A stretch of DNA of 57,533 bases from Candidatus Sediminicultor quartus (GCA_011056645.1 DSEL01000186.1:1-57533); one strand, 5' to 3'. Counted from the stretch's first letter, positions 1 through 43,267 are shown. The notes: a model not told the origin generated them from the letters alone. A program made the numbers and translations.

Positions 1-144
1 TATAACGGTTATCTTATATTTATATATTGTGATTTTCTTTAATATAAGTCATATTACCAAGATGAAAATAATTAAGAAAAAAGTTTGTAGAAATATAGTT
101 GAAGCTTTTGCAGTTAATTACTTTTCTAAAAGGAGTGAATAATT

Positions 145-1419
145 TTGGCACTATTATCTTTATTAATTTCTTTCGTAGTTTTATTAATTATCGGTTTTCC
201 TATTGCATTTAACTTATTGCTAAGCTCAATAATTTATTTAATAGTTGGAGGATACCCTTTAACTTTAGTTACTCAACGAATGTTTGAAGGAATGAATGGA
301 TTTGCTTTATTAGCTGTCCCATTTTTTGTGCTTACCGGACAATTTATGGTAAAAGGGCATCTTCTTCGTTCTTTAACGGATTTCGTTAATGCTTTTATCG
401 GTCATGTAAGAGGAGCTTTGGCTCTGGTAACAATCGGAACTTGTTTATTTATGGGATCAATTGTAGGTTTAGCTCTTGCAGAAATTGCATCTCTGGGTTC
501 ATTTTTAATTCCAATGATGAAAGAGGAGGGATATAAACCAGCTTTTAGCTCAGCTGTAATGGCAAGTGCTTCATTACTTGGACCTATAATGCCGCCCAGT
601 GTACTAATGATTCTGTATTGTATGTCAGTAGGTCGAACCTCGATTGCAGGCTTATTTCTTGCAGCAATTATTCCAGCATTTATTATTGCTTTTTTTCAGA
701 TGGTAACTGTTTATTTTATTGCAAAAAAGCGTAATTACCCAAGCCATTCAAAGACTAATTGGCCAGAGAAGTGGACTCAATTTAGAAAATCTATACCAGC
801 CCTTTTTTTGCCTATAATTATTCTAGGTGGAATTTTTGGTCGTATTTTTACAGTTACTGAAGCATCTGCAGTCGCTGCACTATATGCTTTTATTGTAAGT
901 TTTTTTGTATTTCGAGAAGCAAAATGGTCAGATCTGCCAGGTATTTTTTTAGAAACTGCCTTAACATCAGGTTTAGTTATTTTATTAGCTGGCACTGCTA
1001 CAGTAACTGCTTGGGCTATTGCTAATGAACGGATCATTTATATGTTGGTTGAACCACTTTCTAATGTTCCTACATGGGTTTTTCTATTATTAGTAAATAT
1101 ATTACTATTAATAAATGGAATGTTTATGGATGATTATGCTTCAGTCGTAATATTAGGTCCAATTCTTGCTCCAATTGCTTGGAAATTGGGAGTTGACCCT
1201 TTACAAATTGGGGCGATTGTATGCGTAAATTTGGTAATTGGACTTGCAACTCCACCCTTTGGTATCGCTCTTTTTGTCACTAGTCCTATGGCAGGAGTAA
1301 AAATTGAAGATACCGTTAAAGAAGCTTTACCTTTTATAGCTGTAAGTATTGCAGCGCTAATTTTAATAACTTATATTCCACAGCTCACTTTATGGTTACC
1401 TAGACTTTCTGGCTATTAG
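145..1419 (+). CDS. dctM: TRAP transporter large permease
   Basis: 424 aa, highly hydrophobic, TRAP-M motifs (LLAVPFFVLTG, GPIMPPS, GLATPPFG). TTG start after an AAGGAG RBS. Confidence 0.95.
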   Translation: MALLSLLISFVVLLIIGFPIAFNLLLSSIIYLIVGGYPLTLVTQRMFEGMNGFALLAVPFFVLTGQFMVKGHLLRSLTDFVNAFIGHVRGALALVTIGTCLFMGSIVGLALAEIASLGSFLIPMMKEEGYKPAFSSAVMASASLLGPIMPPSVLMILYCMSVGRTSIAGLFLAAIIPAFIIAFFQMVTVYFIAKKRNYPSHSKTNWPEKWTQFRKSIPALFLPIIILGGIFGRIFTVTEASAVAALYAFIVSFFVFREAKWSDLPGIFLETALTSGLVILLAGTATVTAWAIANERIIYMLVEPLSNVPTWVFLLLVNILLLINGMFMDDYASVVILGPILAPIAWKLGVDPLQIGAIVCVNLVIGLATPPFGIALFVTSPMAGVKIEDTVKEALPFIAVSIAALILITYIPQLTLWLPRLSGY

Positions 1420-1518
1420 AAGTATGAAACAGAAAGGAGAGGATGCTTATAGAAAAAACTAGTAAAAATATCTGTTTTTAAAAATTAAAAAATATTTATA
1501 AAAGGAGAGTATTTTATT

Positions 1519-2538
1519 ATGAGTAAAAAGTGTATAGCAGTTTTATTAGTATTACTATTAGTATTGTCTCTATCAAGTGTTGGGTTTGCTGCAACAAAAG
1601 TGAGAATTTCGGTTTGTAATGCCCCCACCCATCCACAAAATATTGGTTTGGAAATATTTAAGAATTACGTGGAAGAAAAAACTAATGGCGAAATGATAGT
1701 AGATGTATATCCTAATTCACAACTTGGTGCCGAAAGAGAATCAGTAGAACAATGTAAGAATGGTTCTTTAGAAATGGCTACTGCTTCTGCTGGTCCATTG
1801 ACTACTTTTAATAGTAAATTTATGGTTTTAGATATTCCTTTTGCTTTCAATAGTTACGATGTAGCTTGGATGGTTTTAGATGGTCCGGTTGGGCAGAAAT
1901 TACTTGAATCTTGTGAAGAAGTTGGACTAAAAGGATTGAGCTTTATGGAAAATGGTTTTCGTCACGTTACTAACAACGTACGACCAGTTACTAAAGTAGA
2001 AGATTTTGCAAATATTAAGATTCGTACTATGGAAGCTCCAATGCACATGGAGAATTTTAAATTATTAGGTGCTAATCCTACTCCAGTTCCATGGACTGAA
2101 CTATATTTAACTCTACAACAAAAAATAGTGGATGGTCAGGAAAATCCTTTGGCAAATTTATGGGAAGTTAAGATGTACGAAGTGCAAAAATACGCTTCCT
2201 TAACTGGTCATATTTATGATCCTATGCCATTAGTTGCAGATTTAAAATGGTTTAATGGCTTAACTCCTAAACAACAGAGCATTATTGAAAAAGGTGCAAT
2301 TTTAGCGCAAAATTACAGTAGATTTGTTAACAACGCCCGCGAAGAAGAGTTGGCCAGACTATTAACTGAAAAAGGAATGATAATTAATGATGTTACAGAT
2401 GAGGAAAAAGCAAGAATGAGAGATGCTTCTCAGGCTAAAGTAGTAGAGGCGATCAAGAAAAATACTGATCCAGCTTTCGTAGATGAGTGGCTAAAAGCTA
2501 TTGATAAAGCCGGGGAAGATATTAAAGCAGGTCTATAA
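1519..2538 (+). CDS. dctP: TRAP transporter substrate-binding protein
   Basis: Signal peptide; motifs YPNSQLG, ENGFR, KIRT, NPTPVPWTELY and DGQENP. AAGGAG RBS. Confidence 0.95.
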   Translation: MSKKCIAVLLVLLLVLSLSSVGFAATKVRISVCNAPTHPQNIGLEIFKNYVEEKTNGEMIVDVYPNSQLGAERESVEQCKNGSLEMATASAGPLTTFNSKFMVLDIPFAFNSYDVAWMVLDGPVGQKLLESCEEVGLKGLSFMENGFRHVTNNVRPVTKVEDFANIKIRTMEAPMHMENFKLLGANPTPVPWTELYLTLQQKIVDGQENPLANLWEVKMYEVQKYASLTGHIYDPMPLVADLKWFNGLTPKQQSIIEKGAILAQNYSRFVNNAREEELARLLTEKGMIINDVTDEEKARMRDASQAKVVEAIKKNTDPAFVDEWLKAIDKAGEDIKAGL

Positions 2539-2550
2539 TATTAACTCTGT

Positions 2551-2584
2551 TTCAGGAGAAAGGCGCACCTGCTTTTCTCCTGAA
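2551..2584 (+). terminator. Stem-loop after dctP (terminator or mRNA-stabilising hairpin)
   Basis: TTCAGGAGAAA ... TTTCTCCTGAA 11-bp inverted repeat just after the dctP stop. Confidence 0.6.
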
Positions 2585-2636
2585 ACCTTTTTATAATATC
2601 GAAATTATTGTAAAAGAACAGCTATTCAAGTAAGAG

Positions 2637-3155
2637 GTGGGTAATATAGTGAATGAAGTAGAAAAAAACTGGTTTTTTAAACTTTGTGATATATTAGAAA
2701 AGATTACTTTATATACTGTAATGATAATATGTGCAACAATGTTAATTGTAGCTTGGGTACATGTAATAAGAAGATATATTTTTAATAATTCTTTAACTTG
2801 GTCTGAAGAATTTCTTAGATTCTCTTTAGTATGGTTTGCTTTATTAAGTGCCAGCATTATTCACAAAAAACGTGGTCATTTAGGTATAGTTACTTTTCGG
2901 GAAATGATGCCTAAAAAAATTCAGATATTTTTAGAGAGATCTTTACCCTATTTAGCATTAGTAGCTACTTCGTTGACTGCTATTTATGGTGTAAATTTAA
3001 TGATAAGAGTACAAGGACAGTTTTCACCAGCTTTAAGGATCCCGGTTGCTTTACCTTATGCCGCTATTCCAATATCGTTTATTTTAATGACCTTATATGG
3101 AATAGCTCATATAATCGAAGATTTCAAAGTTGCTTTAAAAGTAAAAAATAATTAA
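2637..3155 (+). CDS. dctQ: TRAP transporter small permease
   Basis: About 4 TM segments and the RRYIFNNSLTWSEE motif. The in-frame GTG at 2649 is better spaced from the RBS and may be the true start. Confidence 0.9.
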   Translation: MGNIVNEVEKNWFFKLCDILEKITLYTVMIICATMLIVAWVHVIRRYIFNNSLTWSEEFLRFSLVWFALLSASIIHKKRGHLGIVTFREMMPKKIQIFLERSLPYLALVATSLTAIYGVNLMIRVQGQFSPALRIPVALPYAAIPISFILMTLYGIAHIIEDFKVALKVKNN

Positions 3156-3184
3156 CAAATTAAATCTTTTAGAGGAATTTATTT

Positions 3185-4474
3185 ATGTATTTTACTGAGA
3201 CCAAAGATAAAAATGTTATTTACTATGATACAGAAGAGAAAATAAAAATTACAATAAATGAAGAAAAATATCATGGTTTAATCAGTATAAAAGAGCCAGA
3301 AGAATTAAAATGGCCGGAAGAATTTAAGAAATCCCTTGAAAAACCTATTAATAGTAAATTACTAAGAGTGTTAGCGAAAGGTGTTAACAAGGTAGTTATT
3401 ATTGTTTCTGATTCTACCCGGGGAGTACCTACTTCAAAAATTATACCGATAATTCTTAAGGAACTTCAAAGTGCGGGAGTAGATTTTAAACAAATAGTTA
3501 TAGTAATTGCACTTGGAGTTCATAGACCAGCAACTTCAAGAGAAATTGAAGAAATTATTGGTAAAGATTATTTAAAAAAAGTAAAAATTATAAATCACGA
3601 TCCTTACAATAAAGAGGAATTGGTTTTTTTAGGTAAGACTTCTTTTGGTACTCCAATAGAGGTAAACAAAACCGTTTTTCAAGCTGATTTAAGGATAAAT
3701 ATAGGAAAAGTTGAACCTCATGAATTTGCAGGGTTTTCCGGTGGGAGAAAGTCAGTTTTACCTGGAATTAGCAGTGAAAGGACCATAAAAGAAAATCATA
3801 GACCTGAAATGATCCTGAAATATGGATCAAGACCTGGTTGTTTAAAAGATAATTCAATACATAAAGATATGATAGAGGCAACAAAAATGTTAGGAATTCA
3901 CTTCAGTATAAATTTTGTACTTAATTCAATGGGTCATACCATTGGTCTTTTTGCGGGGAATATTTTTGATGCTCATCAAAGAGCAGTTGAATTTATAAAA
4001 TCATTTTGTCAAGTAAAGATAAAAGAGAAACCTGATATTGTAGTTACTACGCCCGGGCCTCCACTAAATATTGATTTTTATCAATCTATTAAACCATTAA
4101 TTTCTCTAGAGTCGATTATGGCTGAAAAGGGGATAATAGTATTGTATAGTTTGTGTCCCGATGGTTTTAACTCAGATGATATGCTCTTACCATTTAAAGG
4201 GGTGAAAAGTTTGGATGAGGTAGTCAGTAAGCTTATGAAAAATTATAAAATACAAATGGATCATGCACTTCTTTTATGTAAAATATTAAAGAAGAATATA
4301 AAAATTATTACTTCATCACCTAATTTAGAGGAACAAACATTAAACAAAATATATCTGGAGTATTTTAGAAATCCACAAGAAGCAGTAAATAGAGCTTTAG
4401 ATATATCCGGAAAATTTAAACCTAAAGTATTGTTTTTCCCGCAGCCACAGAGGACTTTACCGATCCTGGTTTAA
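3185..4474 (+). CDS. larA: LarA-family nickel-pincer (NPN)-dependent 2-hydroxyacid racemase/epimerase
   Basis: Motifs SDSTR, ALGVHR, PHEFAGFSGGRKS, ENH and FYQSIK match the conserved D/R, H, H/K, H and Y/K residues of LarA. Substrate unknown. Confidence 0.9.
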   Translation: MYFTETKDKNVIYYDTEEKIKITINEEKYHGLISIKEPEELKWPEEFKKSLEKPINSKLLRVLAKGVNKVVIIVSDSTRGVPTSKIIPIILKELQSAGVDFKQIVIVIALGVHRPATSREIEEIIGKDYLKKVKIINHDPYNKEELVFLGKTSFGTPIEVNKTVFQADLRINIGKVEPHEFAGFSGGRKSVLPGISSERTIKENHRPEMILKYGSRPGCLKDNSIHKDMIEATKMLGIHFSINFVLNSMGHTIGLFAGNIFDAHQRAVEFIKSFCQVKIKEKPDIVVTTPGPPLNIDFYQSIKPLISLESIMAEKGIIVLYSLCPDGFNSDDMLLPFKGVKSLDEVVSKLMKNYKIQMDHALLLCKILKKNIKIITSSPNLEEQTLNKIYLEYFRNPQEAVNRALDISGKFKPKVLFFPQPQRTLPILV

Positions 4475-4578
4475 ATTTTGAGAAAATTTAAGAACAAAAT
4501 TATAGTTTTTGTTTTTTTATGATATTTTAATGCGTAGATTATATAATGTAAAAATATTATTTTAAAAAGGAGAAAAAG

Positions 4579-5853
4579 ATGAATAAATTTAAAATTACAG
4601 CCATTAAAGCAAGAGAGATCTTAGATTGCCGCTGGACTCCTACTGTTAGAGTAGAAGTTCAGGTAAACAATGAAATTGTTGGGCAAGCTGATGCACCGGC
4701 AGGACGTTCTACTGGATTAAATGAAGCAAGTGAATTGAGAGATAATGAAGAGCGTTTTAATGGTTTAGGAGTAACCAAGGCAGTTAAAAATGTTAACGAA
4801 ATTATTGCCCCAGCATTAATCGGTATGGATGTTACTGAGCAAAGAAAAATAGACTATAAAATGATAGAACTTGATGGAACTAAGAATAAAGAAAATTTAG
4901 GTGGAAATGCAATAATTGCAGTATCTTTAGCATGTACTCGCGCTGCAGCTAATGCAATGGGTTTACCATTATATCGATATATTAATCCAAATGCTCACGT
5001 ATTACCAGTTCCATTGTTAAATCTTATTAATGGCGGAAAACTTACTTCTAATGACCTTGATTTTCAAGAAGTGTGTATATTCCCAGTAGGCGCTAAATCT
5101 TTTAAACAGGCAATGGAAATTGGGTATGCTGTAAATGAAGAGTTAAGAACTATAATTATCGACAATTACGGTAAAATTGCAGCAAATGTTGGAGATGAAG
5201 GGGGATTTGCTCCGCCAATTGTCAAAGTTCGTGAAGCAATGGATCATTTAGTTCATGCAGTAGAGCTATCTGGATTTGCTGATAAAATTGTATACGGATT
5301 TGATTCTGCCGCCAGTCATTTTTATGATAAAGACACCAAGCTTTACAATTTAGAAGGAAACAAATTAACTACTAATGATATGATTAATTATTATAAAGAT
5401 TTAATAAGAAGTTATCCAATAGCAACGATCGAAGATCCCTTAGATGAAAATGATGTTGAAGGTTTTATCCAGGTGACCAAGGAATTAGGTATTCAAATTG
5501 TTGGAGATGATTTTTTCTGTACCAATCCTGCTTTAATCAAAGAACGTTCCAGTTTAGGGGGAGCAAATGCTTTATTGTGGAAATTTAATCAAATTGGTAC
5601 TGTTTCAGAGGCTTTGGATGCCGCACAAATAGCCTTTAGAAACAGTATGGGGATTATGGTTTCAGAACGTTCAGGTGAAACAGAAGATCCAATTTTAGCA
5701 GATTTTACTGTTAGCCTTAACGCTGGGCAGATTAAAACCGGTGCTGGAGTGCGCAGTGAAAGAACTTCGAAATACAACAGGCTTTTACAAATTGAACAAG
5801 AACTTGGTTCTTTGGCTAAATATGCGGGAAGAGATTTTAAGATGGCCCTTTAA
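4579..5853 (+). CDS. eno: Enolase-family protein, divergent paralog
   Basis: AREILD, GDEGG, IEDP, VGDD, KFNQIG, RSGETED and QIKTG are present, but both conserved His residues are replaced (see findings). Family call is firm; activity is uncertain. Confidence 0.85.
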   Translation: MNKFKITAIKAREILDCRWTPTVRVEVQVNNEIVGQADAPAGRSTGLNEASELRDNEERFNGLGVTKAVKNVNEIIAPALIGMDVTEQRKIDYKMIELDGTKNKENLGGNAIIAVSLACTRAAANAMGLPLYRYINPNAHVLPVPLLNLINGGKLTSNDLDFQEVCIFPVGAKSFKQAMEIGYAVNEELRTIIIDNYGKIAANVGDEGGFAPPIVKVREAMDHLVHAVELSGFADKIVYGFDSAASHFYDKDTKLYNLEGNKLTTNDMINYYKDLIRSYPIATIEDPLDENDVEGFIQVTKELGIQIVGDDFFCTNPALIKERSSLGGANALLWKFNQIGTVSEALDAAQIAFRNSMGIMVSERSGETEDPILADFTVSLNAGQIKTGAGVRSERTSKYNRLLQIEQELGSLAKYAGRDFKMAL

Positions 5854-5905
5854 GATAATTGTCTTTTTAAAACAAATTTGGTGTGGAACCAGAGAAGAGG
5901 GAAAA

Positions 5906-7261
5906 GTGATTTACATTAAAAACAAAAAACAGTTATTATCTCATGGTAATATAGAAATGCGCAAGGCTGCTTTAGAAATAATTGAGCATTCATTAGAAAA
6001 AGCCGACCCGTATATTGCAACTAAGAATTTAGTCTCTTTAAAGAATAATAATTTACATGTTGGAAGCTTAACTTTCAATTTGCAAAATCATAAAAGAATT
6101 TTTATTCTAGGAGCCGGAAAAGCTACTTTTCCAATTGCGAAAGCACTAGAGGAAATTTTGGGGGATAAAATAACTGATGGAATAGTGATTTGTAAATACG
6201 GGCAAGAAGGATACCTAAAGTATTCTAAATTATACTTAGCTAATCACCCTATTCCGGATGAAGCTGGGCTTCTGGCGACCAAAGAGGCTATAATATTAGC
6301 TAAAAAAACAAGACCGGGAGATATAGTATTTGCCTGCATTACCGGTGGTAGTTCTGCACTTATGCCCTTACCGGTATCTGAAGTGAGCTTAGAAGAAAAA
6401 AAAGTAGTAAATAAGTTACTGCTTACTTGTGGTGCTAATATAATTGAAATAAATGCTGTTCGCAAACATTTAAGCCAAGTAAAGGGTGGTAGACTCGCAA
6501 AAAACATTCACCCAGAAGCACATTTAATTAACTTGACTGTATCTGATGTTATTGGTGACCCTTTAGATTATATTACCTGTCCGACTGTTCCCGACACTTC
6601 TACATTTAATGATGCTCTAAATGTAATTTCCAAGTATACACTTTGGGAGAAATTACCGGTATCTGTAGCGAACTACCTTAGAAATGCTACTTCAGAAATG
6701 GAAACTCCAAAAGATCTTTCCAATTATCATTTATATAATTTTATTATTATAGCTGGAGATACAGCTTGTGTTGCAGCAGAAGCAAAAGCAAAAGAAATGG
6801 GTTTTAATACAATGATCCTTTCAACTATGTTTGAAGGAGAAAGCAAGGAATTAGGGAGAGCTTTTGTATCAATTGCTAAAGAAATTATAATAAATAAGAG
6901 ACCGCTTAAAACTCCTTGTGCTTTAATTGGTGGGGGTGAAACTACCATAAAGTTAGAAGGGAATTATGGAATGGGTGGTCCAAATCAAGAGTTTACTCTG
7001 AGTGCTGCGCTCTATTTAGAAGGTTTGAAAGATATAGTGATAGTAGGATTGGATACTGATGGTACGGATGGACCAACGAAAATTGCCGGAGCTATTGTAG
7101 ACACCGACTTTACTTTCATGGCAAAAAAAATAGGCATATCACTCCAGCATGAACTTGATTGGCATAACACTGTGGAAGTTTTTGAAAAAATGGGTGATGC
7201 AATTATCACCGGATCTACCGGAACAAATGTAAATGACCTTAAATTCTTATTAATTTTTTAA
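5906..7261 (+). CDS. Glycerate 2-kinase / MOFRL-family kinase
   Basis: GAGKA, TGGSSAL, RKHLSQVKGG, SDVIGD, GGETT, GGPNQE, DTDGTDG and TGTNVND motifs. Start moved from 5741, which overlaps eno, to the GTG at 5906 behind GAAGAGGG. Confidence 0.9.
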   Translation: MIYIKNKKQLLSHGNIEMRKAALEIIEHSLEKADPYIATKNLVSLKNNNLHVGSLTFNLQNHKRIFILGAGKATFPIAKALEEILGDKITDGIVICKYGQEGYLKYSKLYLANHPIPDEAGLLATKEAIILAKKTRPGDIVFACITGGSSALMPLPVSEVSLEEKKVVNKLLLTCGANIIEINAVRKHLSQVKGGRLAKNIHPEAHLINLTVSDVIGDPLDYITCPTVPDTSTFNDALNVISKYTLWEKLPVSVANYLRNATSEMETPKDLSNYHLYNFIIIAGDTACVAAEAKAKEMGFNTMILSTMFEGESKELGRAFVSIAKEIIINKRPLKTPCALIGGGETTIKLEGNYGMGGPNQEFTLSAALYLEGLKDIVIVGLDTDGTDGPTKIAGAIVDTDFTFMAKKIGISLQHELDWHNTVEVFEKMGDAIITGSTGTNVNDLKFLLIF

Positions 7262-7320
7262 AACAATAAAAAATGAGGAATCACCTAATAAATATATATA
7301 TTTTGAAGGAAGGAATAAAT

Positions 7321-7980
7321 ATGATTTTTCTAAAAAAGGAACCAAAGATAATGGCCCAAGAAATAACTACCGATATTAGGAGAGCAATAGCGAATGGCAT
7401 TATTAAGCCAGGTGAAAAAATTAATGAAACACAAATTGCAAGAGATATGGGTATTAGTCGTTCTCCAGTTAGAGAAGCATTGCAAATGCTGAAAAAAGAA
7501 GGAGTTGTGGTCAGTATTCCTTATAAGGGAACATTTGTAAACTTGCTTGGGAAAAAAGATATTGAAGATATGTATATTATAAGAGGATTACTTGAGGCTT
7601 ACGCTATAGAAAAAGTAATAGAAAATAAAAATGAGAAAATTTTAAAATGTTTAAGAAAAAATATTGAAGACATAGAAAAAGATGTGAAAAAAAACCAATT
7701 GAAAGAATTGGTTAGCAAAGATATTGAATTCCACCGTAATATTTGCATTTTTTCTGGCAATAAAAAATTAATTGATATTTGGGAAGGGTTTCAAACGCAA
7801 ATAGAAGTTTTGATTGATTTAGAGAGTAGTTTTTATGAACGCTTCCAATTATTAGCGGTTGAGCATAGGGAATTGCTTTCTTTAATAATTGATGGAAAAG
7901 TTGAACAAGCTCAAGAAAAGATTAAAGCCCATATTTTACAAGCCCTTGATTTTTTAAAAAAAAGTTTGAAGAAATATTAA
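7321..7980 (+). CDS. GntR/FadR-family transcriptional regulator (FCD domain)
   Basis: N-terminal wHTH (GISRSPVREAL) and C-terminal FCD (DIEFH, EHRELL). ATG at 7321 after GAAGGA chosen over 7273. Confidence 0.9.
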   Translation: MIFLKKEPKIMAQEITTDIRRAIANGIIKPGEKINETQIARDMGISRSPVREALQMLKKEGVVVSIPYKGTFVNLLGKKDIEDMYIIRGLLEAYAIEKVIENKNEKILKCLRKNIEDIEKDVKKNQLKELVSKDIEFHRNICIFSGNKKLIDIWEGFQTQIEVLIDLESSFYERFQLLAVEHRELLSLIIDGKVEQAQEKIKAHILQALDFLKKSLKKY

Positions 7981-8024
7981 AAATATAGAAACAAAAAATA
8001 AGTAGATATTAGGAGAAAATAATA

Positions 8025-8981
8025 TTGGCTTATCATATTTTAATTACAAAACATATACCAAGCGAAGGATTAATAGATTTAAAAAAATATTGTAATATTT
8101 ATATGCCTGAAACTGAAAGCAAATCATTTTCTCAGGAAGAGCTATTTCGTTTAGCACCTCATTTGGATGCAATTATTTCGGTTGGTGACGTAATTGGCGC
8201 GGATTTTATAAAGAAAGCTAAAAAATTGAAAATAATTAGTAATTATGGTGTTGGGTACGACAATTTAGATATAAAGGCCGCTAATAAAAAAGGAATTATA
8301 GTTACAAATTTACCCGATGTAGTTACAGAAAGTACAGCAGAATTAACATTTATGATTATGTTAGCAGTAAGTCGCCGACTAATTGAAGCAGATAGATATA
8401 TAAGATATGCAAATGATAAAAACTGGCACCCGTTTTTATTTAATAGCCACGAACTTTTTGGCAAACTTCTTGGTATTGTGGGCTTTGGAAGAATTGGCAA
8501 AGCCGTAGCAAGAAGGGCATTAGCTTTTGGAATGCAAGTTTATTATTTTGATGTCTCGCATGATAGAGAAACTGAGTTAGAAGTTAATTTCTTATCTTTT
8601 GAAAAAATACTTAGCGAAATGGATTATATTACTTTACACGTTCCTTATATGAAAAGTACTCATCATTTAATTGGTGAAAAAGAGTTAAATATGATGAAGA
8701 AAAGCTCTTACCTAATAAATGCTTCTCGAGGAGCGGTAATAGACCAAAATGCATTAATAAAAGCCTTAAAAGAAAAGAAAATAAAAGGAGCAGCCTTAGA
8801 AGTATTTGAAACTGAACCATATGTTCCAGAAGAACTAACTTGCCTTCCTAATGTGGTATTAACTCCTCACATGGGGACAAATACAGTAGAAACGAATATT
8901 AAAATGACTAAAGAAGCTGCGAAAAAAATAATTCAAGTATTTCAAGGTGAAATTCCAGCTAATATTATAACATCTAATTGA
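8025..8981 (+). CDS. D-2-hydroxyacid dehydrogenase (glyoxylate/hydroxypyruvate reductase-like)
   Basis: YGVGYDN, GIVGFGRIG Rossmann motif, NASRG, catalytic E (EP) and PHMG. TTG start after AGGAG. Confidence 0.9.
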   Translation: MAYHILITKHIPSEGLIDLKKYCNIYMPETESKSFSQEELFRLAPHLDAIISVGDVIGADFIKKAKKLKIISNYGVGYDNLDIKAANKKGIIVTNLPDVVTESTAELTFMIMLAVSRRLIEADRYIRYANDKNWHPFLFNSHELFGKLLGIVGFGRIGKAVARRALAFGMQVYYFDVSHDRETELEVNFLSFEKILSEMDYITLHVPYMKSTHHLIGEKELNMMKKSSYLINASRGAVIDQNALIKALKEKKIKGAALEVFETEPYVPEELTCLPNVVLTPHMGTNTVETNIKMTKEAAKKIIQVFQGEIPANIITSN

Positions 8982-9186
8982 ATTGAAAAAATAATATATA
9001 AGATAATCGTTTTATAAATTATTTTTTATAATATTTGAATAGAGAAAAATTAATTCTTAAAGAATGTTCTAAAAATTCACGGGAAGAAATGTGTTTTTCC
9101 GCAATCCATTCTCAAAATCCTCATAAATAAGCTTAGGGAAATAACTTTTTAGATTAACCCATTACCTGCAACAAATAGTTATTAAT

Positions 9187-11154
9187 TTAGTCTATTAAAG
9201 GATTATCCTTTGACAAACTTAAGATAAGTTGTTTTTGAGTTTTATTTAGGTTGACGAGTTCCTGGTTATATTTTTTTAGATCAATCATCAGGTTTTGGAC
9301 TTTTTTTGAATCTTTAAGGACTATCGGATCACATAGCTGATTTTCTATATCAACTTTATTTTTTTCTATGAGCTTTATTTCTTCTTCGGCTAATTTCAAT
9401 CTATTTAGAACATCCTTATTTTGCCGATAGATACGATTCCGTTCTTCTGCTTCTTTCTGTTTTCTCAGTTTATCAGAAGTTTTTGCGCTTTGTTTTGGCT
9501 GCTCTGTTTTTTTTATATATAAGTTCCTTTCATTAGTTTCTGCCAGTAGTTGATTCCGTTTTTCTATAAAGTAGGAATAATTCCCAGGATAATCATAGAT
9601 CCGTCCATCACGGATCTCGATTACCCGGCTAATTAGATTGTCCAGAAAGAAACGATCATGGGATACAATCAATATAGTCCCGCTATATTTTAGCAAGGCT
9701 TGTTGAAATAATTCTTTAGTAATTATATCCAGATGATTGGTCGGCTCGTCAAGTATCAGAAAATTAGATTCTTGCATCAGAATCTTTGCCAGGGATAGCC
9801 GGGATTTTTCTCCTCCGGAAAGAACACTAATTGGTTTATAGACATCATCACCGGAAAAGAGAAAGGCTCCCAATAAATTTCTCCTTTCTCCGGAAGTCAT
9901 AGAACTTGGTTCAGCAGATATTTCTTCCAGGACAGAATGGTTGTAGTTGAGATTGTCAGAGCTTTCCTGAGAGAAGAAAGCCAGATTTACTTTATGTCCC
10001 AGGTGTACTGTTCCGGAAGTCGGTCTTTCTCTTTTGCTAATCAATCGGGAGAGGGTAGATTTACCTGCTCCATTTACCCCTACCAGAGCTACTCTTTCGC
10101 CGCGGTGTAAGGTAAAAGTAAGACCGTTGAATACTTTAATTTCTTCATATTCTTTAGCCAAGTTTTCTACACTTACCACTTGATCCCCACTTCGGGGGCA
10201 TTTAGGAAAATAGATGGCTACTTTTTTAGGGGTTTTATCAATTTTTACTATTTGCATTTTTTCCAGCATTTTTATTCTGCTTTGCACCTGTGTTGCCTTA
10301 GTATTTTTGTAACGAAATCTTTCAATAAAAGTTTCGGTTTTGGCTATCTTTTCCTGTTGATTTTTCGCTTCTTTTTGCAATAGTTCATGCCGCTTATCTT
10401 TTTCTTCCAAGTAATAGGAAAAATTTCCCTGATAGAGTGTCAATCTCTGATGGGCTAATTCTGCAATTTGGGTCATAAGTTTGTCCATAAAGTACCGGTC
10501 ATGAGAGATGACTAAGATAGTACCGGAAAAATTTAAGAGCCAATTTTCCAGCCACTCCAGGCTTTCGGTATCCAGATGGTTGGTCGGTTCATCGAGCAAA
10601 ATAATATCCGGTGAAGAAAGAAGTATGGAAGCCAGGATTATACGCATCTTCCATCCTCCGGAGAATTCAGTACATTGTCGGGTAAAATCTTTTTCTCGGA
10701 AGCCCAAACCTTTAAGTACTTTATGTGCCTGGGTAGAAAAAGTATAGCCTCCCCGGTGCTCAAAGAGATTGGTTATCTGTTCATATTTTTTAAAAGCTGC
10801 CAGATATGCTTTTGACTCAGCAGATAGTGAAGTCAGATGTTCTTCGCAAGCTTTTAGGGAATGTTCTAATTTAGTAATACCTGATTTTTCTTTCAAGTAA
10901 GAGATAAGGTCGATGTTGCTTTTAAGTTCTATTAAATCTTGAGGAAGATAGCCAATCCGCTGATTTCGTGGTAAAGCAATATTGCCTTTATCTGGTAGAA
11001 CAAGTCCTACAATGGATCGAAATAGGGTAGTTTTTCCGGTACCGTTATTGCCTACCAAACCAATACGGCTGCCTCTGGGGATTCTCCAGTTTAAATTATC
11101 AAAGAGAACTCTCTCCTGGAAACCAATGCTGACATTTTCAAGGGAAATCATCAA
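9187..11154 (-). CDS. ABC-F family ribosome-associated ATPase
   Basis: Two NBDs (GNNGTGKT, FSGGW, LLDEPTNH; GVNGAGKS, LSGGE, ILDEPTNH), no TM segments, C-terminal coiled coil. Confidence 0.93.
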   Translation of the reverse strand: MMISLENVSIGFQERVLFDNLNWRIPRGSRIGLVGNNGTGKTTLFRSIVGLVLPDKGNIALPRNQRIGYLPQDLIELKSNIDLISYLKEKSGITKLEHSLKACEEHLTSLSAESKAYLAAFKKYEQITNLFEHRGGYTFSTQAHKVLKGLGFREKDFTRQCTEFSGGWKMRIILASILLSSPDIILLDEPTNHLDTESLEWLENWLLNFSGTILVISHDRYFMDKLMTQIAELAHQRLTLYQGNFSYYLEEKDKRHELLQKEAKNQQEKIAKTETFIERFRYKNTKATQVQSRIKMLEKMQIVKIDKTPKKVAIYFPKCPRSGDQVVSVENLAKEYEEIKVFNGLTFTLHRGERVALVGVNGAGKSTLSRLISKRERPTSGTVHLGHKVNLAFFSQESSDNLNYNHSVLEEISAEPSSMTSGERRNLLGAFLFSGDDVYKPISVLSGGEKSRLSLAKILMQESNFLILDEPTNHLDIITKELFQQALLKYSGTILIVSHDRFFLDNLISRVIEIRDGRIYDYPGNYSYFIEKRNQLLAETNERNLYIKKTEQPKQSAKTSDKLRKQKEAEERNRIYRQNKDVLNRLKLAEEEIKLIEKNKVDIENQLCDPIVLKDSKKVQNLMIDLKKYNQELVNLNKTQKQLILSLSKDNPLID

Positions 11155-11370
11155 TATTTTCTCCTCTAAATTTTGATTCGTTTATTGATTAGTTGGTTAA
11201 TCATTAAATCTTTTGTTCCGAATCTTTAATTGGTCAATTGGTAAATTAATGAATCTATTATACACGAAATTCAAAATATTTTTAAACATTTGCCCCGAAA
11301 TTTAAAATTATTGTTTTTAGATATTATGGTAAGATATAATGGAAAACAGATATTTATTTTCATTGGAAAT

Positions 11371-11399
11371 CGTGTCAGAAGAACCGTCCCTCTGACACG
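11371..11399. repeat. REP-like unit, AGAACCGTCCC family
   Basis: CGTGTCAGA-AGAACCGTCCC-TCTGACACG: a 9-bp inverted repeat around the same core as the 41.8 kb palindrome. Confidence 0.65.
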
Positions 11400-11417
11400 G
11401 TGAAGGATGTACTTGCT

Positions 11418-12665
11418 ATGAAAGAAAATAATTCGTTTGATGTTGCGGTAATAGGCGGAGGGCCAGCCGGGATGATGGCAGCTGGTCGGGCAGCTGAATT
11501 AGGAGCAAAAATCGTTTTAATCGAAAAGAACGAAATTCTGGGGAAAAAATTACTGATTACCGGCAAGGGACGTTGCAATTTTACCCATTACGAGTTAGAT
11601 ATAAGAAAATTTGCTGAAAAGTTCGGCAGAAATGGACGCTTTCTTTATAGCGCTTTAGCGGTATTTGGAGTGCCAGAGGTGATCAATTTTTTTGCCTCCC
11701 GAGGGATTAAAGGAAAGGTAGAGCAAGGAGATAGAGTTTTTCCGGAGAATGGTGATGCCCAGGATATATTGAACATGCTTTTAAAATATTTGACGGAAGG
11801 AAAAGTCAATATTTTAATCAGTTCTGAGGTAATCGGATTTACACAGGAGAAGGAAAAAATACCCCAGGTTCTTCTTCGAGACCGCCAGATAAGTGCCGAT
11901 AAATTAATTATTTGTTCAGGAGGAAAGGCATATCCCCAGACCGGTTCTACTGGTGACGGCTACCAATGGGCCAAACAATTAGGACATACGGTAGTTGAAC
12001 CTGCTCCCGCACTCAATCCGGTAAAGACCTCTGAAGTTTGGGCGAAAGAGGTACAGGGCTTATCTCTTAAAAATGTCTCACTCAAATTGTTTCAGAATGG
12101 CAAGAAACAGGATGAACGTTTTGGCGAGATGCTTTTTACTCACTTTGGAGTAAGTGGACCTATTGTCATGGATATGAGTAAAAACATCGGAGCGTTGTTG
12201 AAAAATGGTTCGCTAAAATTGTTCTTAGATTTAAAGCCTGCTCTGGATTTTAAAAAATTAGATCAGCGCATCCAGCGAGATTTTCAGGAGTTTAGGGGGA
12301 GAATGTTTAAAAATTCCCTAAAGGTGTTATTACCTTTATCGATGATACCGGTAATAATTAAGCTTTCCGCTATAAATCCTGAGAAAAAGGTGGATTACAT
12401 TAGCCGGGAAGAACGAAATAAGTTAGTTCACCTGTTAAAAGAATTAGAATTAACTCCCACAGAGCTGTTGGGATTTAAGTGGTCGGTAGTAACCAGCGGA
12501 GGAGTCTCCCTTAAAGAGGTGGATCCGAATACTATGGGTTCCAAAAGGATGAAAAATCTTTTTTTTGCCGGGGAGATTTTAGATCTTGACGGACCATCAG
12601 GGGGATATAATCTACAGGAATGTTGGAGCACCGGATACCTGGCCGGCCAAAGCGCTGTAAAATGA
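11418..12665 (+). CDS. HI0933/YhiN-family FAD-dependent oxidoreductase
   Basis: GGGPAG, GKKLLITGKGRCNFT, GGKAYPQTGSTGDG, LFTHFGVSGP, GEILDLDGPSGGYNLQ. ATG at 11418 preferred to GTG at 11400. Confidence 0.92.
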   Translation: MKENNSFDVAVIGGGPAGMMAAGRAAELGAKIVLIEKNEILGKKLLITGKGRCNFTHYELDIRKFAEKFGRNGRFLYSALAVFGVPEVINFFASRGIKGKVEQGDRVFPENGDAQDILNMLLKYLTEGKVNILISSEVIGFTQEKEKIPQVLLRDRQISADKLIICSGGKAYPQTGSTGDGYQWAKQLGHTVVEPAPALNPVKTSEVWAKEVQGLSLKNVSLKLFQNGKKQDERFGEMLFTHFGVSGPIVMDMSKNIGALLKNGSLKLFLDLKPALDFKKLDQRIQRDFQEFRGRMFKNSLKVLLPLSMIPVIIKLSAINPEKKVDYISREERNKLVHLLKELELTPTELLGFKWSVVTSGGVSLKEVDPNTMGSKRMKNLFFAGEILDLDGPSGGYNLQECWSTGYLAGQSAVK

Positions 12666-12771
12666 ACTAAGACTTTGTGTTATAATTAAAAAGCAATCTC
12701 CCTTAATGTAGAAGATCAGGAAAACATAGTAATTTTAACCTTGAGGAAAAATTGGAAAGGTAAAAAATTAG

Positions 12772-13998
12772 ATGAAATTTCTTCACTTGGCCGATATTCA
12801 TCTGGGGATGGAAAATTATGGACGGATAGACCCTTCCACCGGCTTACATACCCGATTAAAGGATTTTATAAAATGTTTTAGCTTTGCGATTGATATTGCT
12901 CTGGAAGAAAAGGTGGATTTGGTAATATTTGCCGGTGATGCTTACAAAAATAGCAATCCTAATTCTACTCATCAGCGTGAATTCGCCCGGCAGATTTATC
13001 GATTAAGCGAAGCAGAGATTCCGGTAATCCTGATAAATGGAAATCATGATAATCCCGTATCTTTCGGTCGAGCTGCCTCACTGGATATCTTCGAAACTTT
13101 AAACATCTCCGGAGTAAGAGTGGTAACCAAGCCGGAGCTGCTAAATATTAAGACTAAGGGAGGGCAGGTTCAAGTCTTTGGGCTGCCCTGGCCTACCAAA
13201 GCCCTTTTTCTTAATAAAGAAGAATATAAAGATTTTACCGATGAGGAAATCACCCGGGAAATTCAAAAGAGAGCAGGTAAAAAAATCAGAGAATTTGCCC
13301 GGAGGATAAAGCCGGGTACTCCCGCAATTTTTGCTGCCCACCTGGCTGCTGCAGAAGCCACTTATTCCGGTTCAGAGAGGTCGGCAATCATCGGAAGAGA
13401 CCCGGTATTTCCTACACAAGTATTGCTTCAAAAAGAATTTGATTATGTAGCCTTAGGTCATATCCATAAATTTCAGGATTTAAATCTTAACCATCATCCC
13501 CCGGTAGTCTATCCGGGGAGTATCGAAAGAATAAACTTTGGTGAGGAGAAGGATGACAAAGGGGTTTGTTTGGTGAATATAGAAAAAGGCAACACTTCTT
13601 ATGAATTTATTCCTCTTCCCGCTCGAAAGTTTATCACCATAGATGTGGTAATTAGCGGAGAGCAAGATCCCACCAGGACTTTAGTGGAGGAAATTGAAAA
13701 GTTTGATTTATCTGAGGAAGTAGTGAGAGTATTTTATACTATACCTGCAGAGAGGGAAGAATTACTGGATTTTAAGAGGATAAACTCTGCCCTGGAAAAA
13801 GCCTTTTTAGTAAGTACTATTGCCAAAAAATCTAAACCGCTAGAGCGAAGAAAAAGAGTAGAGGAAATGACAGAAAATTTAGGAATGTTAGAGGCTATGG
13901 ATAAATATATTCAAAATAATTCCGATTTAGTTCTTTTATCTCGTGAATTGAAAATTTATGCCCAAAAATTAGAAAAAGAATTAGAAGGGAATGGTTAA
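12772..13998 (+). CDS. sbcD: SbcD/Mre11-family nuclease subunit
   Basis: Metallophosphoesterase motifs ADIH, AGD, GNHD and LGHIH, plus YPGSIER. Upstream of sbcC. Confidence 0.92.
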   Translation: MKFLHLADIHLGMENYGRIDPSTGLHTRLKDFIKCFSFAIDIALEEKVDLVIFAGDAYKNSNPNSTHQREFARQIYRLSEAEIPVILINGNHDNPVSFGRAASLDIFETLNISGVRVVTKPELLNIKTKGGQVQVFGLPWPTKALFLNKEEYKDFTDEEITREIQKRAGKKIREFARRIKPGTPAIFAAHLAAAEATYSGSERSAIIGRDPVFPTQVLLQKEFDYVALGHIHKFQDLNLNHHPPVVYPGSIERINFGEEKDDKGVCLVNIEKGNTSYEFIPLPARKFITIDVVISGEQDPTRTLVEEIEKFDLSEEVVRVFYTIPAEREELLDFKRINSALEKAFLVSTIAKKSKPLERRKRVEEMTENLGMLEAMDKYIQNNSDLVLLSRELKIYAQKLEKELEGNG

Positions 13999-14016
13999 AG
14001 AAGGAAGGATTAAAAA

Positions 14017-16714: not shown

Positions 16715-17755
16715 ATGAGCGTTAACTACGAATTATTTGGAACGACCCCAAAAGGGGAAAAAATCGAAAAATACTTTTTAAATAACTCTAGAGGGATTAC
16801 GGTTACAGTAATGAGCTTGGGAGGTACCGTTATATCCCTTAAAATGCCTGACCGGGAAGGAGAAATTAAAGAAATAACTCTCGGTTTTGATAATCTTCAA
16901 CAATATTTGTCCAGTCATTTTTATTTTGGTGCTGCAATTGGTCGTTTTGCCAATCGTATCGCCAACGGAGTTTTTCAGTTGGATGGTATAAAATATTGTC
17001 TCGCCCGTAATGAGAATGGTTTGAATCACTTGCATGGTGGGAATAGAGGATTTGACAAGGTTATCTGGCAAGCCGAGAGTTTTAAAGAACCTGATTTTTG
17101 TGGAGTGACCTTCTCCTACCTCAGTTCAGACGGAGAGGAAGGATACCCTGGAAATCTAAAAGTAGAGATAACCTACAGTTTGAATGAAGATAATGAGTTT
17201 AAAATTGAATATAATGCTAAAACAGATAAACCGACTATCGTGAATCTAACTAACCATACTTACTGGAATCTGGCTGGTGCTGGTTCTAGAACGGTTTTGG
17301 ATCATCAGTTGACTCTGAACAGCAAAAAATACCTTCCGGTTAATAATAATCTAATTCCCATCGGAGAAATTAAGACTGTGTACGGCACCCCTCTGGATTT
17401 TACCAAACCGAAATTAATTGGAAAAGATATAAAGGAGACTGCAGGCGGTTATGATCACTGCTTTGTTATCGAATCCTCAAATCAAGAACTCAATTTAGCG
17501 GCAATGCTTTACGAACCGGAAAGTGGGCGCACGATGGAAATTTTGACCACCACACCAGGCATCCAATTTTATTCCGGGAACTTTCTTCACCCTATTAAAG
17601 GTGCAGACGGAGTACACTTTCAGAAGTACAGCGGTCTCTGCTTAGAAACAGAATTTTTCCCCAATTCAATTAATGAACCGGCGTTTCCTTCTCCTATCCT
17701 ATATCCGGACGGAAGCTACCACCAGGTTACAATACACCGTTTTTCTGTCAATTAA
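16715..17755 (+). CDS. galM: Aldose 1-epimerase (galactose mutarotase)
   Basis: GRFANRI, NHLHGG, EEGYPG, NLTNHTYWNL, YDHCF and GLCLETE motifs. Confidence 0.95.
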   Translation: MSVNYELFGTTPKGEKIEKYFLNNSRGITVTVMSLGGTVISLKMPDREGEIKEITLGFDNLQQYLSSHFYFGAAIGRFANRIANGVFQLDGIKYCLARNENGLNHLHGGNRGFDKVIWQAESFKEPDFCGVTFSYLSSDGEEGYPGNLKVEITYSLNEDNEFKIEYNAKTDKPTIVNLTNHTYWNLAGAGSRTVLDHQLTLNSKKYLPVNNNLIPIGEIKTVYGTPLDFTKPKLIGKDIKETAGGYDHCFVIESSNQELNLAAMLYEPESGRTMEILTTTPGIQFYSGNFLHPIKGADGVHFQKYSGLCLETEFFPNSINEPAFPSPILYPDGSYHQVTIHRFSVN

Positions 17756-17921
17756 GTTAGTATTTTTGTCCGCTTCCCAAATTTTTCTCTTTTATGCGGA
17801 TTTTTATTAACTTAACTTGCTCCCTACATTTATCTTACTGCCTCGAAATGTTAATTGTGATTATAAAAAAGTATATTCTTTTTGATTTTCCATTGGATCT
17901 CTAAAAAAATTTAAAAATAAT

Positions 17922-17951
17922 TTGACATATACAATTAATGAAATATATAAT
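17922..17951 (+). promoter_or_regulatory. Sigma70/SigA-type promoter of the sugar ABC operon
   Basis: TTGACA-18 nt-TATAAT, perfect hexamers. Confidence 0.75.
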
Positions 17952-17953
17952 AG

Positions 17954-17975
17954 TTGTACGGTTGTCCGTATAAGT
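17954..17975. promoter_or_regulatory. Candidate AraR operator
   Basis: TTGTCCGTATAA (17962-17973) is 2 mismatches from the TTGTACGTACAA core of the Bacillus AraR box. A TTGTACG half-site lies at 17954. The site sits right after the -10 element, and an AraR homolog lies in the locus. Confidence 0.55.
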
Positions 17976-18110
17976 AGGGGTATTTGACCCCTTAATATTA
18001 AAGGAGGTGAAAAAAGAACAAAGATCTACGTTAGCACTTTGTATTCAGGTTGCTAGAGCGAGATTTATGGCGAAAAAATATTTAGAGATATTAAAAAAGG
18101 AGGAAAAGTT

Positions 18111-19106
18111 ATGTTAAGGAAAATTAATATTTTAGTTTTGTTGGTATTGACTTGTGTTGCTCTTTTGGTATTACCGGTAATGACACAGGCAAGTGAAGGT
18201 CCTGTGGTTATTTACTTTTTCCCGGGTGGCGCTGCCGGAGGTACCTTTGCTACCGTAGTTTATAATGGCGCTAGAGCAGCAGAGGAAATATTAGGTGATC
18301 GAGTTGAAATAAGATATTTGTGGTCAGAATGGAGCCCGCAGAAAATGGTTGATCAACTTCAGCAAGCTATTGCAGCCAATCCTGATGGTATAGCCATAAT
18401 GGGGCATCCCGGAGATGAAGCATATAAACCTTTCGTTGAAGAAGCTGAAAAACAGGGGATTATCGTTACCAGTCAAAATACAACATTACCCGAACTGGAA
18501 AAAGCTTACGCAGCCAATGGATTTGGTTATGTAGGTCAGGGACTTTATGAATCAGGTTATACTCTCGGTGAAGCTGCGGTTAAAGGTGCAGGATTAAAAA
18601 CAGGAGACAGAGCACTTGTTTGGGGTCTTTTGTCACAACCCACCAGAGGATTGAGGACAAAAGGAGCCATAGATGCTTTTGAAGAAGTAGGTGTAAAAGT
18701 AGATTATGTGGAAATTTCAGCTGAAGTAGACAAGGATGCTTCCAACGGTATTTCTGTTATAGTCGGTTATTTACAGGCAAATCCTGATTGTAAAGTGGTG
18801 GTCACCGATCATGGTAATTTAACTTCTACACAACGTACTTATTTTGAAGCAGCAGGTTTAGGTCCGGATGATATTTTTGGAGCTGGTTTTGATTTATCGC
18901 CGGCTACTGTAACTAGTATTAAGAGTGGTTATACTGATCTTGTGTTAGACCAACAGCCTTTCTTGCAAGGATTTCTGCCCATTATGCAAATTTATTTAAC
19001 TAAGATGTATGGGTTCTCCGGATTACATATTGATACAGGAGGCGGTTTAATTAGCAAGGATAATATAGATTTGATAGCCCCCTTAGCCGAAAAAGGAATA
19101 AGATAA
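18111..19106 (+). CDS. Sugar ABC transporter substrate-binding protein (periplasmic binding protein type I)
   Basis: Signal peptide; AIAANPDGIA, GFDLSP and DQQPFLQG motifs. Confidence 0.9.
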   Translation: MLRKINILVLLVLTCVALLVLPVMTQASEGPVVIYFFPGGAAGGTFATVVYNGARAAEEILGDRVEIRYLWSEWSPQKMVDQLQQAIAANPDGIAIMGHPGDEAYKPFVEEAEKQGIIVTSQNTTLPELEKAYAANGFGYVGQGLYESGYTLGEAAVKGAGLKTGDRALVWGLLSQPTRGLRTKGAIDAFEEVGVKVDYVEISAEVDKDASNGISVIVGYLQANPDCKVVVTDHGNLTSTQRTYFEAAGLGPDDIFGAGFDLSPATVTSIKSGYTDLVLDQQPFLQGFLPIMQIYLTKMYGFSGLHIDTGGGLISKDNIDLIAPLAEKGIR

Positions 19107-19134
19107 ATAATAGTTAGAATACTCATTTCATGGT

Positions 19135-19175: not shown

Positions 19176-19223
19176 TATTTTAGGTTACACTATTAATGAC
19201 TATAAAAAAGGAGAGGGTTATAT

Positions 19224-20006: not shown

Positions 20007-20007
20007 T

Positions 20008-43253: not shown

Positions 43254-43267
43254 AGGAGGGGAGAAAG

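Follow-up and report, generated by a model that had tools for sequence, protein, structure and literature searches.

A TRAP importer, a LarA homolog, a MOFRL kinase and a variant enolase form an operon conserved across bacterial phyla, with a possible route from C3 hydroxy acids to phosphoenolpyruvate

Contig DSEL01000186.1 of Candidatus Sediminicultor quartus (GCA_011056645.1), positions 1-57533, is the stretch of DNA analysed here (57,533 nucleotides, hereafter the window), and it carries an operon of eight genes at 145-8981 on the + strand. These genes encode the three components of a tripartite ATP-independent periplasmic (TRAP) transporter (DctM, DctP, and DctQ), a LarA homolog (LarAH), an enolase paralog (Eno2), a MOFRL-type kinase, a GntR/FCD regulator, and a D-2-hydroxyacid dehydrogenase (2HADH). 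The operon is a real unit conserved across bacterial phyla. We propose, with a probability of about 0.55, that it channels C3 hydroxy acids (both glycerate enantiomers or a close C3 relative) into phosphoenolpyruvate (PEP) by way of the TRAP transporter, LarAH, the kinase, and Eno2, with 2HADH feeding in hydroxypyruvate. The combination of a TRAP importer with two distinct lineages, an orthogroup of LarAH and an enolase clade coupled to the kinase, is new: the initial annotation of this DNA knew of no described pathway of this composition, and in the literature that we searched for an importer, a LarAH, a kinase, and an enolase together, no paper describing them was found.

In the proposed route, DctPQM would import one or both enantiomers of glycerate and might also take up hydroxypyruvate. 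LarAH would interconvert L- and D-glycerate, and the D-glycerate pool would also be fed by 2HADH through the reduction of hydroxypyruvate. The kinase would phosphorylate D-glycerate at O2, yielding 2-phosphoglycerate (2-PG), which Eno2 would dehydrate to PEP, and the GntR/FCD protein would control the operon. That the enzymes act one after another in this order on this substrate, that Eno2 uses 2-PG, and that dehydrogenase and regulator have these roles are inferences; a sequence of import, inversion at C2, phosphorylation at C2, and dehydration would be the simplest route employing every conserved gene.

Relatives of the enolase were searched for in GTDB species representatives (one genome per species), 60 loci were fetched, and homologs of all eight window proteins were located in them; in high-GC loci, open reading frames (ORFs) were filtered by GC3 and checked with Pfam scans. 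The block DctM-DctP-DctQ-LarAH-Eno2-kinase is present in the same order in 16 of the 60 loci, which belong to Bacillota and to Thermodesulfobacteriota or 'Deltaproteobacteria' (e.g., Syntrophaceae and Desulfuromonadales), and 2HADH comes next in 14 of the 16. Other loci hold the genes in other orders. These are aldehyde:ferredoxin oxidoreductase (AFOR)-enolase-kinase-LarAH in a Bacillota metagenome-assembled genome (MAG; locus L004), LarAH-enolase-kinase in a Dehalococcoidales MAG of the Chloroflexota (L020), DctMPQ-LarAH-GntR-enolase-kinase-2HADH in L069, IclR-DctMPQ-kinase-LarAH-enolase in L070, and LarAH-enolase ... enolase-kinase in the isolate Gelria sp. Kuro-4 (L067). The gene order is thus shuffled across phyla and the content is constant, indicating a functional unit. 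Such an arrangement is far beyond chance, and conserved synteny of LarA, the MOFRL kinase, and the enolase paralog, which the initial annotation had named as a check on its reading and whose absence it would have taken as a refutation, is strongly in evidence. L070 represents a minimal set, with a regulator, the TRAP transporter, and just three enzymes. The route must therefore reach central metabolism with these three, as the conversion of a C3 acid to PEP does.

In the Gelria genome (AP024619.1), the two Eno2 copies are near-identical and lie on either side of a cassette with a fused TRAP permease, an octopine-DH-like protein, hydantoinase A/B, and a TAXI binding protein. This cassette looks like a recent duplication or insertion inside the LarAH-Eno2-kinase unit.

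Among closer relatives of Candidatus Sediminicultor quartus, Eno2 is found in none of 18 other genomes of the genus (five of them without any enolase seen, 60-84% complete) and in one of 12 genomes of the same order. This patchy presence marks the unit as an accessory island, and it agrees with the low G+C content of the operon, which is 0.29-0.36 in window 1-9000 versus 0.38-0.41 in 9500-14000. The operon was probably acquired horizontally.

Eno2 (4579-5853, +) contains both Enolase_N and Enolase_C, and it scores 514 bits with the enolase equivalog TIGR01060 (cut-off 300) and 485 bits with the Methanocaldococcus jannaschii enolase (PDB 2PA6). In the alignment of the 60 loci, the enolases fall into two classes. 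The canonical class (n = 7) shows the motifs PSGASTG, SHRSGETED, LIKxNQIG, and IEDG, and a MOFRL kinase is the neighbour in 0/7. The variant class (n = 53) is defined by xG(R/K)STG, SERSGETED, mostly LLWKFNQIG, and IEDP; here a MOFRL kinase lies within ~1 kb of the enolase in 50/53 loci, the remaining three being broken by contig ends. When canonical copies from the same genomes are added, a maximum-likelihood tree sets the two classes apart by a single branch with 100/100 support. The genome of Candidatus Sediminicultor quartus has its housekeeping enolase on another contig (C102), which scores 689 bits with TIGR01060 and is ~45-47% identical to Eno2. The enolase of the operon is therefore a separate paralog, as the initial annotation had it. 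A canonical enolase is also present in all 20 other genomes checked; accordingly, we rejected the idea that Eno2 replaces the housekeeping enzyme.

The names that we met in databases for Eno2-type enolases are plain 'phosphopyruvate hydratase' or 'enolase'. OYT15309.1, deposited under the label 'Bacteroidetes bacterium 4572_77', falls in the same 90%-identity cluster as the window Eno2, and this deposit suggests an origin in a marine-sediment MAG. In two genomes of the same order (G048 and G039), several further divergent enolase-like paralogs are observed, 37-43% identical to Eno2.

The altered enolase site reported by the initial annotation is evident in three motifs of Eno2, where PAGRSTG stands for PSGASTG, NGGKLT for NGGxHA, and SERSGETED for SHRSGETED. 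The signature residues in the window copy are R43, L155, P287, W334, and E363, with Leu155 and Glu363 standing at the equivalents of yeast His159 and His373. The position of His373 is occupied by Glu in all 55 members of the Eno2 clade and by His in all 26 canonical copies, and Pro287 is likewise invariant in the 55. The exchange of His159 for Leu is found in the window and in many clade members, with His retained in part of the clade. We considered whether this exchange tracks the presence of LarAH and rejected the idea, as L004, L067, and L070 keep His with LarAH nearby. Among the best 150 representatives in a 50%-identity representative library, variants with Glu at position 373 are rare. 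The same search returned enolase-like clades with Ala or Val at this position.

Altogether, six alignment positions tell the Eno2 clade from canonical enolases, and four of these adjoin catalytic or metal-binding residues: Arg43 by Ser39, Gly240 two residues before Asp246, Pro287 after Glu295/Asp296, and Glu363 in place of His373 (neighbours given as yeast-numbered equivalents). The catalytic machinery itself is retained, comprising the metal ligands Ser39, Asp246, Glu295, and Asp320, the base Lys345, the acid Glu211, and Glu168, Lys396, and Arg374/Ser375, carried on the motifs RSTG, QE, GDEGG, FDSAAS, IEDP, GDD, WKFNQ, ERSGE, and QIKTG. In enolases, Lys345 and Glu211 form the acid/base pair and Arg374/Ser375 provide the phosphate contacts. 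With metal ligands and catalytic residues intact, Eno2 should still bind a 2-phospho-carboxylate and form the enolate.

A second enolase beside a glycerate-type kinase need not imply special chemistry. Eno2 scores above the enolase equivalog cut-off, and private copies of lower-glycolysis enzymes are known, such as the pyruvate kinases beside MOFRL kinases in Agrobacterium vitis, Pseudomonas, and Methylobacterium (PMC2063504). Eno2 could then be a redundant or differently regulated isozyme, or non-catalytic, while the substrate of LarAH would be unrelated and the transporter shared by chance. We give this very little credence. A redundant gene would often be lost, yet the pair of Eno2 and kinase is kept across four phyla with parallel trees, most of the clade-specific substitutions (the four described above) cluster at catalytic or metal-binding residues, and LarAH remains adjacent in several independent gene orders.

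The MOFRL (class II) glycerate-2-kinase-type enzyme is encoded at 5906-7261 (+) and matches DUF4147 with 236 bits and MOFRL with 107 bits. Its sequence is 43% identical over 423 residues to PH0495 of Pyrococcus horikoshii (330 bits) and scores 293 bits with TM1585 of Thermotoga maritima. Both are solved MOFRL kinases, deposited as a hypothetical protein and a putative glycerate kinase, respectively; both reportedly make 2-PG from D-glycerate, which for PH0495 is reported to have been verified experimentally. Lineage-specific NCBIfam kinase equivalogs are matched below their cut-off (251 versus 550). In the kinase tree, PH0495 and TM1585 join near the meeting point of two large groups of Eno2-linked kinases and are no more distant from the window kinase than other Eno2-linked kinases are. 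The separating branch has a support of 81/36, and with so weak a branch no functional clade of their own can be demonstrated for the Eno2-linked kinases. The tree of the kinases parallels that of Eno2, which shows that the two are inherited as a pair. Characterised MOFRL kinases are glycerate-specific with 2-PG as the product and use L-glycerate at 13-34% of the D-rate; for the Thermoproteus tenax enzyme, glycerate was the sole acceptor used among those tested (PMC2063504).

LarAH (3185-4474, +) matches Lar_N (PF09861) with 211 bits and LarA_C (PF21113) with 50.5 bits, and it scores 200-214 bits with the solved structures of LarA and Mar2. It retains the equivalents of LarA1 Asp72/Arg75, the catalytic His108 and His174, the cofactor tether Lys184, and the nickel ligand His200, in the motifs SDSTR, GVHRP, EPHEF, GGRKS, and ENHRP, which are also conserved in the syntenic orthologs. 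For the nickel-pincer nucleotide (NPN) that serves as its cofactor, the genome holds larC (481 bits) and an adjacent larB with an AIRC domain on contig C11; a neighbouring ORF of 241 residues has no Pfam match. The assignment to LarA made in the initial annotation is thus backed by a full catalytic and cofactor-binding set as well as by larB and larC. Six more Lar_N matches, three of them strong, are found in the genome (contigs C9, C23, C61, C4, C10, and C15), and beyond the window copy the organism appears unusually rich in NPN enzymes.

LarAH scores below every NCBIfam equivalog cut-off for LarAH groups, the best being MAR (360 versus 500) and LarA (330 versus 460). Urdiain-Arraiza et al. 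(PMC11770544) predicted specificity from the residues at LarA1 positions 175, 176, 358, and 359, which are F,F,W,E/Q in the LAR group, x,x,H/Q,K in MAR, Y,F,H/Q,T in HGR, and E,V,A,H in GntE. The corresponding residues in the window are E,F,D,H, matching no characterised subgroup, and they are invariant across 22 distinct syntenic orthologs of LarAH down to 35% identity. Positions 358 and 359 were taken from the alignment with Mar2 because the LarA1 alignment is gapped at 358. LarAH is therefore predicted from its residues to be an NPN-dependent 2-hydroxy-acid racemase or epimerase of an uncharacterised subgroup. It lacks the Lys of the malate- and tartrate-active enzymes, which argues against a dicarboxylate, and its pocket, being polar, speaks for a side chain with a hydroxyl or some other polar group.

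DctM (145-1419, +; PF06808, 377 bits; TIGR00786, 378 bits versus a cut-off of 268), DctP with its signal peptide (1519-2538, +; PF03480, 292 bits), and DctQ (2637-3155, with the start at 2649 according to gene callers, +; PF04290, 96 bits) together supply all three components of a TRAP system, namely the large permease, the solute-binding protein, and the small permease. Orthologs of dctM that are 74-77% identical occupy the same position in 16 loci. DctP keeps in alignment the Arg/Arg/Asn set that binds the carboxylate (equivalents of Arg152, Arg173, and Asn213 of PDB 4P47). The solved relatives give no ligand assignment for DctP, since the closest one, 4P47 (232 bits), is a ligand-free structure.

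After 4P47, the next solved relatives of DctP include binders of sugar acids and proteins crystallised with pantoate or erythronate. This raises the alternative of a C4 acid, in which a tetronate (D-erythronate or L- or D-threonate, for which LarAH would be a genuine C2 epimerase) or tartrate would receive a phosphate at C2 and then lose water, giving a substituted enol-phosphate (phosphoenol-4-hydroxy-2-oxobutanoate or phosphoenol-oxaloacetate) to be taken further by housekeeping enzymes. The specificity residues of LarAH resemble those of gluconate 2-epimerases, its best-scoring profile is that of malate racemase, an enzyme type that also epimerises tartrate, and the altered pocket of Eno2 could accommodate a C4 substituent. 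On the other hand, the clusters, the smallest of which has only three enzymes, conserve neither an aldolase nor a decarboxylase nor any other downstream enzyme, and LarAH is without the Lys that marks malate- and tartrate-active members. The known MOFRL kinases do not take larger sugar acids or malate. We consider a C4 acid improbable because of the lack of a conserved downstream enzyme and of this Lys, the latter having led us to downgrade malate and tartrate in particular. Between the glycerate and the longer aldonates that had both been suggested initially, the evidence favours the C3 option.

The dehydrogenase (8025-8981, +; 2-Hacid_dh_C, 199 bits) has both the catalytic and the NAD-binding domain of the 2-Hacid_dh family and is probably of the glyoxylate/hydroxypyruvate reductase type. 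Its best NCBIfam match is the glyoxylate reductase PRK13243 (335 bits, under the cut-off of 455), and its best match in the PDB is the Pyrococcus glyoxylate reductase 2DBQ (264 bits). A 2HADH stands at the equivalent position in 14 related loci and is 32-37% identical to the window copy. The reductase-like character of 2HADH counts for glycerate, as do the similarity of the kinase to PH0495 and TM1585 and the catalytic set of LarAH. LarA-family enzymes racemise glycerate in vitro, a reaction whose physiological meaning was stated to be unknown (PMC11770544, 2024), and among the groups listed in a 2020 survey of LarAH genomic contexts, none includes an enolase or a glycerate kinase.

The pair of Eno2 and kinase also occurs in other contexts. 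In Solirubrobacterales and other Actinomycetota, the order is Eno2-GntR-kinase-PotA-type ABC ATPase-two solute-binding proteins-two permeases-Amino_oxidase-fold flavoenzyme-M20 peptidase, next to an aminotransferase gene on the opposite strand. The best NCBIfam matches of the flavoenzyme are carotenoid desaturases, all under their cut-offs, so that 'amine oxidase' is a fold-level label. Three Bacillota MAGs have Eno2-kinase-amino-acid permease-HbpS-like, with a class-III aminotransferase next in L050 and L052, the latter scoring above the cut-off of the equivalog for gamma-aminobutyrate (GABA) transaminase. In Neobacillus sp. 19, which like Gelria sp. Kuro-4 is a cultured carrier, a sigma-54 activator is found beside Eno2-MFS-kinase-GAPDH, with GAPDH above its equivalog cut-off, and an AFOR adjoins the pair in L004 and lies near it in L022. 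The theme common to these contexts is the conversion of an amine or aldehyde into an acid, which the kinase and Eno2 pass on to lower glycolysis; the contexts do not name this acid. Those with AFOR, as in the non-phosphorylative Entner-Doudoroff branch, and with GAPDH fit the glycerate node.

Several of these observations weigh against glycerate as the substrate. The housekeeping enolase should suffice for plain 2-PG, and Eno2 is nevertheless kept beside the kinase in nearly every locus of its clade. The His373 position is invariably Glu, and His159 is Leu in the window; mutants of yeast enolase at these two histidines are strongly reduced in activity. A redundant isozyme is not expected to stay tied to a kinase across four phyla with an invariant replacement of an active-site His, and this is the chief objection. 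In addition, the E,F,D,H of LarAH are unlike the F,F,W,E/Q of lactate- and glycerate-active members and closer to the E,V,A,H of gluconate 2-epimerases, hinting at a more polar or larger substrate. Finally, glycerate alone does not explain the class-III aminotransferases, the flavoenzyme, and the importers of amino-acid and polyamine type beside the pair in Actinomycetota and some Bacillota.

The main alternative is that the kinase and Eno2 form a kinase-plus-lyase pair for another 3-substituted 2-hydroxypropanoate, such as isoserine (the 3-amino compound) or 3-sulfolactate. After inversion by LarAH and 2-O-phosphorylation, Eno2 would expel ammonia or sulfite to give PEP, so that the route would still finish at PEP, in agreement with the three-enzyme minimal cluster. 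The strict retention of Eno2 where a canonical enolase is always present, the invariant exchange of His373 for Glu, and the Arg that usually stands beside the Mg-binding Ser are consistent with such a reaction. In the yeast structure, the His373 position lies on the side of the active site that faces the C3 substituent. The acidic Glu and Asp at the specificity positions of LarAH point the same way, as does the recurrence of the pair with GABA-type or other class-III aminotransferases, the Amino_oxidase-fold flavoenzyme, an amino-acid permease, and PotA/PotD-type ABC importers. However, the kinase is inseparable in the tree from PH0495 and TM1585, which are of the glycerate-2-kinase type, and the T. 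tenax enzyme used glycerate only among the acceptors tested (PMC2063504). No sulfite exporter or reductase is present in any cluster examined, a direct elimination of ammonia would leave the aminotransferases without a purpose, glycerate is the better fit for the AFOR and GAPDH contexts, and the enolase family proper offers no known biochemical precedent. Overall, we regard a 3-substituted acid as unlikely, if better placed than a C4 acid. A broader and comparably doubtful possibility is that Eno2 would be the first case of neofunctionalisation within the enolase family proper. Eno2 and the kinase would then form an activate-then-eliminate pair making PEP from a non-glycerate 2-hydroxy acid (isoserine, sulfolactate, or another 3-substituted lactate) or from a 'wrong' stereoisomer, with LarAH setting the C2 configuration.

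The eight ORFs of the operon are all on the + strand and are separated by intergenic gaps of 29-110 nt, which agrees with the co-directional genes and short gaps of the initial annotation; its family assignments (TRAP, LarA, enolase, MOFRL kinase, GntR, and dehydrogenase) likewise stand with the Pfam and NCBIfam profiles used here. Two gene starts are corrected. The most likely start of the kinase is GTG 5906, downstream of a good ribosome-binding site, AGAGGGAAAA, and not within the enolase gene. For the regulator (7321-7980, +; GntR, 63 bits; FCD, 71 bits), ATG 7321 is the most likely start. An ABC-F gene (9187-11154) comes next and is convergent to the operon, so the unit ends at 8981. At the other side, the window opens at the contig end, which cuts the upstream intergenic region with the promoter side (1-144, +). 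In L063, a longer contig from this species, a radical-SAM gene and a gap of 566 nt lie 5' of dctM, so that dctM is the first gene of the operon.

The GntR/FCD protein is presumed to be a local repressor of the operon, and the type of regulator varies, related loci having IclR or GntR in its stead. The initial annotation had proposed a search for GntR operators upstream of dctM. The classical site TNGTNNNACNA was sought there and is absent; a GGTCGACC-centred palindrome, ATAAATGGT...GGTCGACCATTTAT, is found in L063 (1943-1976, ~250 nt 5' of dctM and outside the window) and is a candidate operator for the GntR/FCD regulator. A promoter scan gave matches no more frequent than expected from shuffled sequence, and an Rfam search for a riboswitch or other RNA element found no family at E up to 0.1. 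Between dctP and dctQ lies a strong hairpin (2549-2586, +) whose 17-bp stem precedes a T-run; it may act as an attenuator or as an mRNA stabiliser that raises the DctP:DctQM ratio.

Further along the window, a sugar utilisation island is located at 16715-26133 (+), with an aldose 1-epimerase, a ribose-type ABC transporter, a fucose-isomerase-like protein, a GntR-LacI fusion regulator, and an FGGY kinase. The genes at 30474-44599 (+) encode an amidohydrolase, a YgeW-like carbamoyltransferase, a DpaL-like PALP enzyme, a YgeY-like M20 peptidase, a second PALP-like protein, the molybdenum subunit of xanthine dehydrogenase, and two more amidohydrolases, which looks like a set for anaerobic purine or urate degradation. 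SelB is encoded at 53918-55801 (-), making selenoproteins likely.

If the proposed route is true, it would provide the first clear physiological context for a LarA-family racemase of small polyhydroxy acids, within a compact importer-racemase-kinase-enolase module present in at least four phyla, mostly in uncultured sediment and soil bacteria. An enolase clade in which a near-invariant active-site His is always Glu would hold a lesson on enolase catalysis or be the mark of a new reaction. Since all members currently carry the plain annotations 'phosphopyruvate hydratase', 'lactate racemase', and 'glycerate kinase', the pathway goes unseen when metabolism is reconstructed from metagenomes.

The closest characterised racemases are LarAH43 from Enterocloster asparagiformis and other LarAHs of the lactate racemase group (PMC11770544), which racemise glycerate in vitro and share with the window protein the NPN-dependent inversion at C2, the catalytic histidines, the Lys tether, and the His nickel ligand. 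LarAH43 has F,F,W,Q at the specificity positions and a physiological role stated to be unknown, whereas the LarAH described here has E,F,D,H and a defined catabolic context. The D-gluconate 2-epimerases GntE1 and GntE2 (LarAH19/20) are similar in that a LarAH precedes a kinase in an acid-sugar operon, and Glu and His are common at two specificity positions; their operons differ in having sugar kinases, dehydratases of the hexonate pathway, and hexonate substrates.

The catabolism of small polyhydroxy acids is also served by the L-threonate and D-erythronate pathways, which were reportedly described by Zhang et al. in 2016 with DUF1537 kinases and often with TRAP importers. Those routes employ a dehydrogenase, an isomerase, a DUF1537 4-kinase, and a decarboxylase, and none of those families is present here. 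The tartrate cluster of Agrobacterium vitis (MOFRL kinase ttuD and pyruvate kinase ttuE) and the gcl cluster of Pseudomonas combine, as here, a MOFRL kinase with a private lower-glycolysis enzyme that drives a C3 intermediate towards pyruvate. In contrast to Eno2, that private enzyme is a pyruvate kinase with normal residues, and these clusters have no racemase, TRAP transporter, or enolase.

The chemistry proposed for the operon is most reminiscent of the lower branch of the non-phosphorylative Entner-Doudoroff pathway and of the serine cycle, where a class II MOFRL kinase converts glycerate to 2-PG and an enolase converts this to PEP. In the serine cycle, D-glycerate is supplied by hydroxypyruvate reductase, as proposed here for 2HADH, and the archaeal non-phosphorylative pathway involves an AFOR, as do some loci related to the window. 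Both pathways use the housekeeping enolase, whereas the operon has a dedicated, altered enolase clade tied to the kinase, together with a TRAP importer and a nickel-pincer racemase.

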